From: a virus
Taxonomy: Duplodnaviria; Heunggongvirae; Uroviricota; Caudoviricetes
DNA length: 41,350 nucleotides
Direction: 5' to 3' (one strand)
Virus record (IMG/VR): IMGVR_UViG_3300045988_014834
Location: 1-41,350 of that record
The position numbers were made by a program, and so were the translations under genes. Of the stretch, positions 3,926 through 34,721 are shown one piece after another; the first letter of the stretch is position 1, and the number at the start of each line of letters is the position of its first letter. The notes below the pieces were generated by a model. The model was not told the DNA's origin. It searched no databases and was given only the letters and a program-made list of their open reading frames with translations.

Positions 3926-4317
3926 TTCACCTTGTTGGCTTCTTCGTTAATGAGTTGCTGGAATCGGGACACGTTAGTTCTGACAACCCCGGCGGGCGCT
4001 TGCTGCGACCAGCCATACTCCAGCCGTTGTGCGTACGGCAGATTATTTGTCAGCGTGAACTCGCGCCAGTCTGCTGCTTTCAGCACGAAACCCGTAGCGT
4101 TTCCGGTTGCTGTGGCCCCTGATTTATCGGTAGCATCTGTAACCCCGTAAGCAGGTGTTCCACCAGATGCCATCCAGTTCATACGAAAGCGGCCTGTATC
4201 TACCGGACTCGCCTTTATGATAGCGGAAAACAGCTTGATAGACACCTGACGCATCACCTTCTCGGGGTTCTTCTTCGCCTTTTCCACGAACTTAGAGACG
4301 TCAAGCGCGAAACTCAT
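3922..4317 (-). CDS. Head-tail joining protein (hypothetical), 131 aa
   Basis: Synteny in the late operon. Confidence 0.35.
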   Translation of the reverse strand: MSFALDVSKFVEKAKKNPEKVMRQVSIKLFSAIIKASPVDTGRFRMNWMASGGTPAYGVTDATDKSGATATGNATGFVLKAADWREFTLTNNLPYAQRLEYGWSQQAPAGVVRTNVSRFQQLINEEANKVK

Positions 4318-4727
4318 TTTCTCACCTGAATAAAGTAGGCCACGACATCATCATTAACCATCTTCTTCTCGATAGCTACGACAGACCATTGCTCGCCGCC
4401 GAATTGTACCTTGTCTTCCATCTTCGGAGCGACACTGCAATCGGCTTTAACAATCACGTCACCGGCCTGAATCGTCGTACCGTTTACCAGTCCCGCGTTT
4501 ACCGGAACTGGAACGGCCTTCAACGGCAGCACTTCATCCGCAGACCAGACGTATTCACCAAGAACTTCATCCCACACTTTCGAGCCAGAGCGAATTAGAG
4601 ATACCGTGCTACCGAATTTGGTTAGCAGGCGTGTGCCCACGCCTTGCATACGTCTACTGAAAGCTGTACCCATTACGCGGCCTCCAGTCTCGAGATAACC
4701 AGTAGCGCGGATGGTGCTGTGCCCCAT
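4314..4727 (-). CDS. Head-tail connector protein (hypothetical); true start probably the ATG at 4673
   Basis: Synteny; internal Met gives an ATGA overlap with the upstream gene. Confidence 0.35.
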   Translation of the reverse strand: MGHSTIRATGYLETGGRVMGTAFSRRMQGVGTRLLTKFGSTVSLIRSGSKVWDEVLGEYVWSADEVLPLKAVPVPVNAGLVNGTTIQAGDVIVKADCSVAPKMEDKVQFGGEQWSVVAIEKKMVNDDVVAYFIQVRK

Positions 4728-6030: not shown

Positions 6031-6999
6031 TCACTTGTCCGCGTCGGCGATTGCCAGAGTACCGAGGGTGTGTTTGTTCTCGGCAACAGCTTTGTCCCAG
6101 TTGGTCGCGGTGAACAGTTCTGCGTCCAGCGGAGATTTACCGCCGTTGGCGACATCCCAGCTATAGCCTTTCAGTTTCAGGCCGAAGCTGTAATCCGCCT
6201 GCCAGGTGGTCTGGATGCGGGTGTTACCGTTGCTGGTATCAATGTTGCTGATAATGTCAGAAGCATTATCAACGATGATGCCGTTTGCAACTACTGACAG
6301 GACCTTAGTCTTGTTCGGAGTACCAGCTTCGTACAGCGCAGGGATGTCGGAGATCACATAACGCTTACCGAGAACATCGACAACCATAACGTTACCAGCA
6401 ACGAACAGCTGGTTTGCGTTAGTCAGCGCTTTATCTACCAGCGTGTGATAAGCAGCACCAGTCATGATGTCGGTAATCAGCAGCTGAGACTGGTCGCCGA
6501 ATTTAGCGTGGCTGTTGTTCAGCACGTTCAGGGACAGACCCACGGTTGCAGATACGTCGTTAACCAGCGCGGCCTGACCAGATACCGCCGCAACAGCTGC
6601 GCCAACAGCAGTGTTGAGCTGGTCCGCTAACAGTGCGTCAGAGAAGCCTTCGGAAATAGCACGAATCGCGCTCGCCGGGTCTTCGTTAAGCCAGGTCATT
6701 TGCGCAGGCTCGAACAGTACCGGTCCGAAGCCGCCAGCGACTTTAACGCCTACATGCTCGCCCTGAGTCAGCGCGGTAGCTGCCTGAGACGCGATAGCGG
6801 CGTAACGGTCAACGCGGCGTTTAGCGGAGGCAATCTGGTTAAAGAAAGACTCACGTGAGAAGTCACCGCGCCATGAAGCGGTAGACAGTACAATTGCACC
6901 ACCGGAGGCTGCGTTAAACTGGTCAGTTTTCTGGCCAAGCAGTTCGATAGTGGTACCGACGATGTCGTCGTTATAAACCTTCATATCTGACAGAGACAT
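6031..6999 (-). CDS. Major capsid protein, 322 aa
   Basis: Follows the scaffold gene; size and composition typical of an HK97-fold capsid protein; attenuator hairpin downstream. Confidence 0.65.
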   Translation of the reverse strand: MSLSDMKVYNDDIVGTTIELLGQKTDQFNAASGGAIVLSTASWRGDFSRESFFNQIASAKRRVDRYAAIASQAATALTQGEHVGVKVAGGFGPVLFEPAQMTWLNEDPASAIRAISEGFSDALLADQLNTAVGAAVAAVSGQAALVNDVSATVGLSLNVLNNSHAKFGDQSQLLITDIMTGAAYHTLVDKALTNANQLFVAGNVMVVDVLGKRYVISDIPALYEAGTPNKTKVLSVVANGIIVDNASDIISNIDTSNGNTRIQTTWQADYSFGLKLKGYSWDVANGGKSPLDAELFTATNWDKAVAENKHTLGTLAIADADK

Positions 7000-30233: not shown

Positions 30234-30425
30234 ATGAAACACGAATATGACCGCAAGCCAGCCCGTGACATCGTACCAGGTGACATGATTTTCAACGTTA
30301 AGACACGCCAGCCTGTTGCCGTTGATACGGTGTTCGTCGAGTCGAACGGTAAACTGGTTATCGAGGACGTAACCGGTAACGTTACGGCGTTTGGGCGTAA
30401 AGAGTTAGTTCTGGTGTTGAAATGA
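30234..30425 (+). CDS. Hypothetical protein, 63 aa
   Basis: AAGGAAT upstream of the ATG. Confidence 0.4.
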   Translation: MKHEYDRKPARDIVPGDMIFNVKTRQPVAVDTVFVESNGKLVIEDVTGNVTAFGRKELVLVLK

Positions 30426-30919
30426 ACAAATTAACTAGAAGGCCTGATATTGAGGAGGCGAAACGTCTTCTTAACTATGACCCCGAAACAGGCGTATTTA
30501 CACGGAAAGTAAGCATAAAAGGTAGGAATGCGGGGGAGGTAGCCGGGGGTCCAAACGACAAAGAATACATAGTTATCACCGTATCTGGTGTAAGAATAAA
30601 AGCCCACCATCTGGCATGGGCTTTCGTCTACGGAGAATATCATAATGGTGAGCTTGACCATAAAGACCGTAACAGGGCTAATAACGCCATAAATAATATA
30701 AGGCCAGCAACCAGGAGCCAGCAGATTCAGAACCGAGACTGCGCATCACATAACACTAGCGGTGCGATAGGGGTTTACCAAATACCCTCTGGCAGGTGGC
30801 GCGCCAGAATAGGCGTCAATAACAAATACATCCACCTTGGCTATTTTGACACTATAGAAGAAGCGTCGCGCGTATACCAAAGAGCCGCGGAAATATACTT
30901 CGGGGAGTTCAGGGCATGA
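30422..30919 (+). CDS. HNH homing endonuclease with C-terminal AP2-like DNA-binding domain, 165 aa
   Basis: HNH motif HH...ELDHKDRNRANN..NN; C-terminal GVYQ..SGRWRARI...LGYF.T.EEA..Y. Confidence 0.65.
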   Translation: MNKLTRRPDIEEAKRLLNYDPETGVFTRKVSIKGRNAGEVAGGPNDKEYIVITVSGVRIKAHHLAWAFVYGEYHNGELDHKDRNRANNAINNIRPATRSQQIQNRDCASHNTSGAIGVYQIPSGRWRARIGVNNKYIHLGYFDTIEEASRVYQRAAEIYFGEFRA

Positions 30920-32340
30920 GTAAGTTTAGGCGCAGGGAATATCAGAAAATAATGACGTCGTTTATGTTACGGCACCCACGTTGCAATATCTGGTGCGGCA
31001 TGGGAGGGGGTAAAACCTCCTCTACTATGTGGGTGCTCAACAGATTGTTTCGCAACGGGCAGCTTACTGAAGAGGACCGAGTGTTAATTCTGGCTCCTTT
31101 ACGTGTTGCGTCAGGTACGTGGCCAGCGGAACAGGCACGTTGGAATTTCCCATGCCTGAGTGTCGTAGATGCCACCGGTTCAGAGAAGCGCCGCATCGCG
31201 GCGCTGGAGTCCGACGCTAACGTGGTATGCACCAACTATGAAGTTATCGAGTGGCTTATTGACTATTACGGCAAAGACGACTGGCCTTTCACCGTTATCG
31301 TTGCCGATGAAAGCACGAAGCTAAAATCATTCCGCAGCCGTTCTGGCGGTAGCAAGCGGGCAAAGGCGCTTAGTAAAGTGGCGTTCGGAAAGGTTAAGCG
31401 TTTCATTAACCTGACGGGCACACCGTCGCCAAACGGCCTCAAGGACTTGTGGGGGCAGAACTGGTTTATCGACGCTGGCGAGCGACTCGGTTCTTCATAC
31501 ACGGCATTCACCGACCGATGGTTTAACTCGGTGCAGAAAGGTAAGTCGGCTATGGCGCGGGGGTATCACGCACGACCTGGTGCAGATAATGAAATTCACC
31601 AGAAGATGAAGGACATTAGTCTCACGATTGACGCCGCCGAGTGGTTCGGATGCGAAGCGCCGATTATTGTACCGGTTGAAATTGACCTGCCTAAGAAAGC
31701 ACGTCAGGCGTATATCGATATGGAGGAGAAGCTATTCGCGGAACTGGAGAGCGGAGAAGTCGAAGCGGCTAACGCCGCGGCGAAGACCTCAAAGTGTTTG
31801 CAGATTGCGTCTGGTGCCGTGTATGTGTCAGGACCAGACGGAGAAGCAACCAAAGACTGGGAGAAAGTGCACGACACGAAACTGGATGCGCTGGAGTCGA
31901 TTGTTGAGGAGTTACAGGGCGCGCCGTTACTTGTGGCCTATCAGTTCAAGCACGAACTGGAGCGCATCCTTAAGCGGTTCCCGCAGGCACAGGCGTTTGC
32001 CAAAGGTGTGAAGGGTAATAAGCAGATGGAAGCGTGGAACCGCGGTGAAATCGAAATATTATGCGTACACCCTGCGTCAGCCGGGCATGGTTTGAATTTG
32101 CAGGACGGCGGACATCATCTGGCGTTTATTTCGCAAGGGTGGAACCTTGAGCACTATTTGCAGGTTGTCGAGCGCATAGGCCCAGTTCGCCAGAAACAGG
32201 CGGGCCACGAACGCCCTGTGTTCCTTTACCACATTGTTGCTAAAGACACGCTGGACGAGGTTGTTGCCGCGCGTACCGACGAGAAGAAATCGGTACAGGA
32301 AGAATTGCTTAATTACATGAAGAGACGAGGTAAGAAATGA
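30916..32340 (+). CDS. SNF2/DEAD-like superfamily 2 helicase, 474 aa
   Basis: Walker A GMGGGKT, DEST box, LTGTPSPN motif. Confidence 0.7.
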   Translation: MSKFRRREYQKIMTSFMLRHPRCNIWCGMGGGKTSSTMWVLNRLFRNGQLTEEDRVLILAPLRVASGTWPAEQARWNFPCLSVVDATGSEKRRIAALESDANVVCTNYEVIEWLIDYYGKDDWPFTVIVADESTKLKSFRSRSGGSKRAKALSKVAFGKVKRFINLTGTPSPNGLKDLWGQNWFIDAGERLGSSYTAFTDRWFNSVQKGKSAMARGYHARPGADNEIHQKMKDISLTIDAAEWFGCEAPIIVPVEIDLPKKARQAYIDMEEKLFAELESGEVEAANAAAKTSKCLQIASGAVYVSGPDGEATKDWEKVHDTKLDALESIVEELQGAPLLVAYQFKHELERILKRFPQAQAFAKGVKGNKQMEAWNRGEIEILCVHPASAGHGLNLQDGGHHLAFISQGWNLEHYLQVVERIGPVRQKQAGHERPVFLYHIVAKDTLDEVVAARTDEKKSVQEELLNYMKRRGKK

Positions 32341-32546
32341 ATAATGAGTTTGATATTGACGCTTGCAACGAATTGATAAAAGCCGCTCTTAATGCCCGCG
32401 AGCAACTGCTTGCCATGCAGTTAAAGCGAGAAATAAAACGTATCAAGGAACTGGAAGAAGAGGTTCTACGACTACGGCAGCAGCGTGACGCGGCTAACGC
32501 TCTTATTCAGGAACAGAACCGAATTATTGCAGGAGATACAGAATGA
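32337..32546 (+). CDS. Small coiled-coil protein, 69 aa
   Basis: Coupled to the helicase; heptad-like charged pattern. Confidence 0.35.
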   Translation: MNNEFDIDACNELIKAALNAREQLLAMQLKREIKRIKELEEEVLRLRQQRDAANALIQEQNRIIAGDTE

Positions 32547-32826
32547 AAGTCAACGAACTACTCCAGGAATCCGCGTACACCCTCACTCAGCGTGGTGAGC
32601 AGAACGGATACGATAAGAAGGAAGAGGCAGTGCTGCCGAGGTTGCGGCGCTGTTTAACCTGAAGACGGGTCATAGCCTTACTGAGTCCGATGCCTGGCAA
32701 TTCATGATTTGCCTGAAGGAGGTGCGTCTAAAACAGCAGCGGAAGAATGGCGGTGATAAGAAGGACACGCCGATAGACCTGATATCTTACCAGGCGCTGC
32801 TCGCGGAATGTTTAACTGATAAATGA
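32543..32826 (+). pseudogene. Gene split across two frames (frameshifted or recoded)
   Basis: ATG-initiated 39-codon ORF (32543-32662) overlaps a start-less 69-codon open frame (32617-32826) around a purine run. Confidence 0.4.
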
Positions 32827-32855
32827 AAAAGGCCCCTAAAGGGGCCTTAATTTTA
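32826..32855. terminator. Bidirectional terminator (GGCCCC-TAAA-GGGGCC) between replication arm and tailspike
   Basis: Perfect hairpin with flanking A and T runs. Confidence 0.7.
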
Positions 32856-34721
32856 CTGTTTAACGCGCATAAGCCAGGGGGCATCTGCGGTGTTGAACGC
32901 AAGTACGACAACACTGCCTGGCGGGAGAACTCCCAGACCCAGACTCCCTTTTGCGTAGGTGCTGCCCGCCAGTGGCCATACCTGAACTGTGTTAACCACA
33001 ACGCTGGTAATAGAGCCGCCAATCAGGGTTATGTTTTCTGGCCTTGCACCAACTGTAATGGTGAGCGGCGAGGTAGCTCCCGCAAAAGTTGCCGTGGTGA
33101 CCCCCCGCGCTTTATCACCTTTGTTATTCTCGAACACCATCCCAGTTTTTTCGGCCCCGCCGATACCATCGCCGGATTGCGACCGGAAAAAGTTACTAGA
33201 AATATGAAGCTGTCCAACATGATTATCCACCGAAATACACGCAGAGGTGCTACTACGGAATGTATTCGCTGTGATATCCGTAAAGTTAGCAGTAGAGCCA
33301 AACTGAACCGGGACAGTACCTCCGTTAATGGTGCTGCCAGTTAGCTTGGTCCCTACGCCGGCATCTAACAAAAATGCGTTATTTATATAAGCCTGAGCAC
33401 CGTCAATTAACACAGTATCTGCTCCCGGGCCAATGTTAATAGCGTAATCTGTATCCTGGCCCGCGAACCAACAACTATTAAACTGGGCGGCCCGGACATT
33501 GTCCAGATAGATAAAATTAACATTCGACGGCGAGTCAAAGTTGACGCTGTCAAACATCAATGAAATGGCTTTCGCGGTAGAACTCGCGCCAACCTCAAGA
33601 TGCACCTTAGAGTAAGAATAGAACACGGCAGCCCGGACGAACACACCTTCTACATAATCACCCAGGCTCATACCCGTAACGCCCCGTTCAAAGCGTCCAC
33701 CACTGATAGTAGTGTCGAATGTTTTCAGGGCACCATTCCCGAGACCTACCAGTTGAATATCTTTACCGGTCGTACCGGTTGACGCACAGTTGATAATGTT
33801 GGTTACGATAGTGTTATTAAGTCGGATAAAACCAAACGCTTTATTATCACCATAGCAGTAAGCATTTTTAATAGTCATCAGCCCGACATTTTGCGCCACA
33901 ATCTGCTGCTGGGTGGTAGCTACAGTGTTGGTCATGGTCGCGCCAATAATCATGGGCGAATTAACCTGACTGCTGCCGAAGCCGATACGGAAATGAGGCG
34001 CGTCTACAGTCTGCATGATTTCAGAACGGTCAAAATTCAACTCAATCTGAGACGTGACATTTATTGCCGCGGAAATCTTATAGATCTTTTTCGCAGGGAA
34101 TACTGAGCTCTCAACAGTCCTGACGCCACTCAATGCCGCCGCTTGCAGGGCTGCGGTATCGTCTGTAACTCCATCCCCCTTAGCCCCGAAATCCTCAAAT
34201 GTAAGAACATCACTATTTTTATTATGCTGCGTTCTTGCAACGGCCTCCGTAACTGGTTGCCGGGTTGTTACAAGGGCGTCGCCTAAGTTATCAGCGGGGG
34301 ATAACAACTGACCGCGCAAAGTGATGTCGCCAACGGGACGCCATGCGCCAGACGCAATACCACCAGTTGACGACGGAGAAGAACCGGCCGGTATAACCTT
34401 CGGCAGCAATCCCTGCCAGTAATAGTAATCGTTGTCGCCACCGCCGGCAGACGGCCACAGGACCGATTTATTCCTGTCGTTTGTACTTAGTGTGCCGCCC
34501 GTTGTGAAATCAAAGGATGCCGGTTCGAAGCCGATATCGCGCATGATTGCGGGGAGAGTTTTCTGGGTCTGCCCAGTAACCTGATTTGTCGCGTAATCGA
34601 TATCAGCACCCGTAGCAACACCGCCGGATTTACCCGTGATAACCTCAGCCTCGAAAATCTGGTGTTTCTTGGCGGTCTGTAAATCCGCCAGGCTTAAAAC
34701 GTCACCGCATCCGCTTGACAT
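32853..34721 (-). CDS. Tailspike / receptor-binding protein (probable beta-helix), 622 aa
   Basis: Last gene of the tail operon; Asn/Gly/Thr-rich periodic composition. Confidence 0.55.
   Translation of the reverse strand: MSSGCGDVLSLADLQTAKKHQIFEAEVITGKSGGVATGADIDYATNQVTGQTQKTLPAIMRDIGFEPASFDFTTGGTLSTNDRNKSVLWPSAGGGDNDYYYWQGLLPKVIPAGSSPSSTGGIASGAWRPVGDITLRGQLLSPADNLGDALVTTRQPVTEAVARTQHNKNSDVLTFEDFGAKGDGVTDDTAALQAAALSGVRTVESSVFPAKKIYKISAAINVTSQIELNFDRSEIMQTVDAPHFRIGFGSSQVNSPMIIGATMTNTVATTQQQIVAQNVGLMTIKNAYCYGDNKAFGFIRLNNTIVTNIINCASTGTTGKDIQLVGLGNGALKTFDTTISGGRFERGVTGMSLGDYVEGVFVRAAVFYSYSKVHLEVGASSTAKAISLMFDSVNFDSPSNVNFIYLDNVRAAQFNSCWFAGQDTDYAINIGPGADTVLIDGAQAYINNAFLLDAGVGTKLTGSTINGGTVPVQFGSTANFTDITANTFRSSTSACISVDNHVGQLHISSNFFRSQSGDGIGGAEKTGMVFENNKGDKARGVTTATFAGATSPLTITVGARPENITLIGGSITSVVVNTVQVWPLAGSTYAKGSLGLGVLPPGSVVVLAFNTADAPWLMRVKQ

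Follow-up and report, generated by a model that had tools for sequence, protein, structure and literature searches.

A single-base deletion likely inactivates a DUF6378 gene in a Kagunavirus-like phage contig

In the window (the whole 41,350-nt stretch of phage DNA that was analysed), two short open frames overlap on the plus strand. The first begins with an ATG and ends after 39 codons at a TGA (32660-32662), so that the ORF occupies 32543..32662. The second lies in the -1 frame. It opens at 32617, after the TAA at 32614-32616, and runs through 69 sense codons to the TGA at 32824-32826, with no ATG, GTG or TTG ahead of the ATG at 32704. The first-pass annotation had described an ATG-initiated ORF of 39 codons and a downstream frame of 69 codons without a start codon (32617-32826), and both are present. 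They share 46 nt (32617-32662), and GATAAGAAGGAAGAGG is found at 32612-32627. Does this locus hold one gene or two? And if it holds one, is the gene broken in the phage DNA, broken only in the assembled sequence, or read across both frames by the ribosome? The off-frame stop rates of the neighbouring genes give a chance of 0.013-0.075 for a 69-codon open off-frame. The case for one gene is settled by homology.

A single-base shift had been predicted to give one protein of about 100 aa. Joining the two frames gives a product of 94 residues, in agreement with this prediction, and it matches intact 94-aa proteins (best E = 4.5e-49, 91% identity). The joined protein belongs to the Pfam family DUF6378 (PF19905), which it matches with 28.8 bits over profile positions 5-80 of 81, the gathering cut-off being 27.1 bits. 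The C-terminal frame alone scores 24.6 bits, which is under this cut-off, and the 39-aa ORF gives no match. PF19905 is matched by all of the aligned relatives (42/42). A match to the NCBIfam family HypR was set aside as uninformative (15 bits vs a cut-off of 180). In a search of 5.8 billion protein clusters, 53 of the 54 homologues were full-length and uninterrupted (94-107 aa), and so were 17 further members of the closest clusters (94-102 aa). In total, about 70 close relatives are intact, and nearly all of them are 94-99 aa long. Among the annotated phages, a single tblastn place spans 80% or more of the joined protein in 234 of the 243 matching records, and those listed are all single-piece. 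The other broken copy (P0054, positions 463-672 of contig L008, ENA ERZ23831752, NODE_233960) comes from the same subfamily and goes out of frame after residue 38, at a different site. Its contig is 703 nt long with a coverage of 1.5, and its break is probably an assembly or read error.

Two of the relatives come from annotated phages of the Guernseyvirinae and stand at the same position as the gene in the window. These are gp50 of Pantoea phage AH01 (QZA71168.1, 95 aa, hypothetical protein), which is 65% identical to the joined protein, and WQY91262.1 of Hafnia phage TS33 (95 aa, hypothetical protein), which is 57% identical. Both genes are uninterrupted single ORFs, whereas the window lacks one C in the codon of Arg29. 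AH01 also has the ATGA start overlap that is seen in the window. Closer still are two metagenomic 94-aa proteins, P0001 (Logan SRR22388210, 91% identical) and P0003 (Logan ERR6050538, 87% identical); both are intact and read GAG CGC AGT at the site of the break. The P0001 gene adjoins a 622-aa tailspike gene, and 2.4 kb of its contig align to the window at 92.6% identity. Within the 90% clusters of the closest relatives, no intact twin of the window allele was found nearer than 90-91%. Related phages might have carried two separate small genes here, which would have spoken against a split gene. It turned out that they carry one gene of 94-95 aa, and the split-gene reading survives.

The break itself is a gap of one nucleotide. 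It is the sole gap within the gene in a DNA alignment of the window with four intact relatives (the two metagenomic ones, AH01 and TS33), a comparison that had been proposed as a check. Here GAG CGC AGT GCT (E28 R29 S30 A31) is found in the relatives, with GAA CGT AGC GCT in TS33; in the window it is GAG-GC AGT GCT. The deletion site is 32626..32627 (+), so that the codon of the nearly invariant Arg29 lacks its first base. Residues 1-28 of the 39-codon ORF are the authentic N-terminus of DUF6378 (helix 1 and a loop); residues 29-39 (AVLPRLRRCLT) are out of frame and are followed by the TGA. The C-terminal part comprises 65 codons (S30-K94) and a TGA in the -1 frame (32629..32826, +). It covers helices 2-4, has no start codon of its own, and contains no second stop or indel along the 65 codons downstream of the break. 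Close relatives read ...DKKEERSAAE... across the junction, with E28, S30, A31 and A32 invariant and R29 invariant or nearly so. The two frames of the window together keep the invariant residues R17, G18, G22, Y23, D24, E28, S30, A31, A32, W52, K59, E60, R62, D72, D75, D79 and E89. In the full-length collinear alignment, R29 is the only conserved residue that the deletion destroys. Two marks of a frameshift pseudogene are found: one indel relative to intact orthologues restores the whole reading frame, and the gene stands at a syntenic position.

The first-pass annotation placed the break at a purine run. This was right in that the break adjoins the run, but the missing base is a C directly after it and not a purine inside it. 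From the ancestral GAGCGCAG, loss of this C is the only single deletion that gives GAGGCAG. The lost C stands at the 3' edge of the purine run, neither in a homopolymer nor in a repeat unit. Several origins of the deletion were considered and rejected. Slippage within the purine run does not fit, since the base that went missing opens the Arg29 codon CGC (GAG[C]GCAG), and this sequence is not a repeat. Slippage on GCGC would remove two nucleotides instead of one. A quasi-palindrome or template switch was rejected because the hairpin at this place leans on G-U pairs, and by eye only about 8 of its 12 pairs are Watson-Crick in DNA.

What the phage may have lost was judged from the fold of the family. 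AlphaFold models the intact relative with 91% identity (pLDDT 86.6) as a bundle of four helices, which span residues 3-19, 31-42, 48-68 and 74-92. This model, which is of the intact relative and not of the broken gene, superimposes on DUF6378 models of BFVD with TM of 0.8-0.87. The matches in BFVD are other DUF6378 proteins, often present as one domain within larger proteins; in one case (A0A8S5SUM2, 348 aa) the annotation is that of a DNA adenine methyltransferase (N-6). On this model, the 39-aa product would retain helix 1 and the following loop and would carry 11 foreign residues. The sequence past the break encodes helices 2-4 together with most of the later invariant residues, W52, K59, E60, R62, D72, D75, D79 and E89 among them. 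A profile search of PDB sequences gave no matches at E up to 1, and Foldseek against the PDB gave nothing at E < 1. As candidates among the closest known systems, we counted the all-alpha four-helix bundles similar to NTP pyrophosphohydrolases (AF_0060, 2p06; HisE, 1yvw; the MazG-related 2yxh). The DUF6378 gene matches phrog_9871 (unknown function) and also phrog_474 and phrog_1167, both of which carry the label 'phosphofructokinase'. We judged this label to be uninformative and did not trust it. The domain is widespread in phages, often within replication modules and sometimes fused to a Dam methyltransferase. In the record of Escherichia phage Ioannina (H47), the DUF6378 match falls in a protein annotated as a DNA N-6-adenine methyltransferase. 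These hints would fit a role in DNA modification or in nucleotide or DNA metabolism.

The window is a complete contig of about 41 kb from a Kagunavirus-like phage (Guernseyvirinae) and originates from a human gut metagenome. It shows 87-89% DNA identity to K1G-type phages across about 72-77% of the 21 kb tested. A contig in ENA from run ERR1190564 (project PRJEB12123, human gut metagenome) is 100% identical to the window across 6.2 kb. PRJEB12123 belongs to the obesity study of Liu et al. 2017, a whole-genome shotgun gut cohort. Upstream of the locus is an SNF2 helicase gene (30916-32340), then a gene for a 69-aa coiled-coil-like protein (32337..32546, +; phrog_13851, unknown function), which directly precedes the broken gene. 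The TGA of the 69-aa gene overlaps the ATG of the broken gene as ATGA, an arrangement typical for translational coupling. An AGGAG resembling a Shine-Dalgarno (SD) element can be read at 32531..32535 (+), 7 nt 5' of the ATG at 32543. On the other side, a hairpin resembling a bidirectional intrinsic terminator (32829..32848, AAGGCCCC TAAA GGGGCCTT) separates the broken gene from a convergent tailspike gene (32853..34721, -; 622 aa, Tail_spike_N and a weak pectate-lyase-like match). The DNA alignment shows that this hairpin is conserved in relatives. Its position 3' of the broken gene makes the DUF6378 gene the last one of the replication-gene operon. The order helicase, small gene, DUF6378 and convergent tailspike is the same in AH01, in TS33 and in two metagenomic contigs (L005 and L006). 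In K1G and vB_Eco_K-01, the small gene is followed directly by the tailspike, without DUF6378. This absence indicates that DUF6378 is an accessory gene. As it is both accessory and operon-terminal, its truncation would have no polar effect and should be tolerated.

Given these relatives, it is hard to see in the two frames a pair of separate functional small genes, the 39-aa ORF and a 40-aa ORF that starts at the internal ATG (32704..32826, +). Both are recorded as gene calls for a 'hypothetical protein', in the case of the 40-aa ORF with JGI/IMG as the sole source. The relatives encode one gene, and the ATG at 32704, which lacks an SD, encodes Met55 in the interior of the domain. Neither piece alone reaches the Pfam cut-off, and each is predicted to include no more than one or two helices of the four-helix bundle. 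We therefore regard two genes as extremely improbable, and the 40-aa ORF is probably a spurious gene call. Just as improbable in our estimate is a single gene whose full-length protein is made from both frames by programmed -1 ribosomal frameshifting or another form of recoding. The frame that would be needed is indeed -1. The overlap contains a purine stretch that resembles an SD (AAGGAAGAGG, 32618-32627) as well as an RNA hairpin of 12 bp (32625-32655), and frameshifting does occur in this phage genus at another gene, that of the tail assembly chaperone. The product of recoding would span the junction ...DKKEE-G/R-SAAEVAALFNLK. For slippery sites, we used both a heptamer and a tetramer scan, as a strict heptamer scan gave nothing in the window homologues of the two K1G genes annotated as 'joined', although one of them, the chaperone, has an A_AAG tetramer before its stop. 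The zero frame of the ORF has no X_XXY_YYZ heptamer at all. Its sole X_XXY tetramer is T_TTA at 32653, which is 27 nt past the junction defined by homology. If the ribosome slipped at this tetramer, the protein would carry AVLPRLRRCL in place of RSAAEVAALF, whose residues are invariant or nearly so. The nearest relatives have TTC instead of TTT at this site. The purine stretch and the hairpin come from nothing more than the codons for DKKEE and SAAEVAAL; these codons recur in the two closest intact relatives and, in diverged form, in AH01 and TS33. No slippery site is located 5-9 nt 5' of the hairpin, and the fold of the 121-nt stretch is unremarkable (z = -1.79). The two-frame layout occurs in none of the approximately 70 close relatives or the 234 phage records. 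Of the causes proposed at first, programmed recoding thus did not hold, there being no slippery site and the layout being unique to this contig, and a recent frameshift mutation fits best.

The comparison with known recoding sites leads to the same result. The -1 frameshift of E. coli dnaX takes place at the heptamer A AAA AAG, which is preceded by an SD-like element and followed by a hairpin. The window likewise has an SD-like purine stretch and a hairpin near the frame junction, but it lacks the slippery heptamer, and its elements are codons for conserved residues that intact relatives have as well. In the tail assembly chaperone (lambda G/GT type; K1G ORF22A/B; homologue at 143-556 of the window, -), two overlapping frames give one longer product. 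Its site CAG GAA AAG TAG, with the tetramer A_AAG before the stop, is identical in K1G and the window. The split of the DUF6378 gene, in contrast, has no such motif where one is needed and is unique to one contig, while the recoding site of the chaperone is conserved. As for the hairpin at 32625-32655 (+), it contains four G-U pairs and begins right at the deletion site; owing to the deletion, its base gains two weak pairs. We did not accept it as the cause of the mutation in view of the z value of -1.79 and the poor palindrome in DNA.

The alternative that deserves the most attention is an error of sequencing or assembly, in which case the gene is truly intact (GAGCGCAG) and the contig is short by one base. 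A 41-kb contig assembled from short metagenomic reads could plausibly contain one indel. The downstream frame is fully preserved, with a low omega, as for a functional gene, and no independent sample with the deletion was found. Against this, the site is neither a homopolymer nor a repeat, and the deletion is present in contigs under ENA (with a MEGAHIT-style contig name), Logan and JGI/IMG. The 39-aa product is recorded on 3-4 contigs of these three sources. They probably derive from one sample (ERR1190564), so an error present in the reads themselves would stay compatible with all of them. Exact-pattern scans of IMG/VR and JGI metagenome contigs for the alleles with or without the C gave 0 matches. 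The gut cohort was reportedly sequenced on the Illumina platform. Illumina sequencing has a very low indel error outside homopolymers, which argues against an error. In addition, all K1G proteins that match the window (37/37) do so in one frame with one HSP each; hence no other gene shared with K1G is split. The sole split gene found is the one gene of the region that relatives can do without, as is expected for a tolerated mutation, and by length a random error would strike the DUF6378 gene only about 0.7% of the time. Taken together, we consider an error unlikely, and a real deletion in the phage DNA, that is, an ordinary inactivating single-base frameshift in a dispensable phage gene, is the likely explanation of the split.

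If the deletion is real, the C that opened the Arg29 codon (CGC) would have disappeared from the phage gene between 32626 and 32627. Translation from the ATG at 32543 would yield 28 correct and 11 out-of-frame residues and would end at the TGA at 32660-32662. The remaining 65 codons, which have no start codon, would stay untranslated, and the gene would be a recently inactivated pseudogene. The deletion would then sit in the phage DNA and not in the reads, and the loss of the gene product would be tolerated, the gene being dispensable and nothing standing downstream in the operon. We also considered two less ordinary possibilities. The loss of the DUF6378 protein may have been selected, for example because it removes a protein sensed by host defence. 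Or rare spontaneous -1 slippage near T_TTA at 32653 may leave a trace of an altered full-length protein. Nothing that we found supports either of them, and we consider them very improbable.

The age of the break was judged from substitutions. The gene differs from its nearest intact relative at a dS of 0.38. For this pair, dN/dS is 0.11 across the whole gene and 0.14 in the part that follows the break. Between two intact relatives, the downstream omega is 0.065. Purifying selection acted for nearly all of the divergence, and no second lesion has accumulated, which indicates that the break is recent. In a set of 19 sequences, two substitutions at otherwise invariant positions are private to the window (A3V and R65Q). 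In a larger set, A3V is also present in one further relative (P0059), and N4, S49, Q65 and P77 occur only in the window. These few sites give a weak, non-significant hint of relaxed selection after the break and are consistent with a very recent event.

For annotation, this means that one disrupted DUF6378 gene should take the place of the two 'hypothetical proteins' of 39 and 40 aa. The two pieces should be counted neither as new small proteins nor as a recoding site. The locus also adds a small piece of evidence that DUF6378 is dispensable in Kagunavirus-like phages. The weight of the result lies mainly in annotation.

Several other features of the window were seen in comparison with K1G. 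In a tblastn comparison, the major capsid gene (6031-6999, -; 322 aa, Pfam Gp13-like, E 8e-105) is matched neither by the major head protein of K1G nor by its ORFs 9-11. The capsid neighbours are similar to those of K1G to different degrees (head-tail adaptor 89%, scaffolding protein 61%, farther genes 93-94%). Judging from these similarities, the capsid module seems to have been exchanged. The tailspike gene at 32853-34721 (-) shares only 18% of the endosialidase-type tail protein of K1G, and its receptor specificity is probably different from that of the K1 phages. A homing-endonuclease gene (HNH_3/AP2, 165 aa, 30422-30919, +) stands directly upstream of the SNF2 helicase gene. At the corresponding position K1G has a DNA methyltransferase, which has no match in the window. 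Two loci are annotated in K1G as joined coding sequences. In the homologue of the tail assembly chaperone (ORF 143-556, -), the -1 frame at the end of the ORF (about 140-151) runs on to the edge of the window, and the K1G coding sequence is annotated as joined (frameshifted). This is probably a genuine programmed frameshift of the genome, which works through the A_AAG tetramer and not through a full heptamer. The second locus covers 4314-4673 (-) of the window and continues to about 3925; its K1G homologue ORF14A/B is annotated as a joined coding sequence too. In both genomes, the first ORF ends with AGA AAA TGA, and an ATG overlaps the stop (AAATGAG). This arrangement may be simply two genes with an ATGA overlap.
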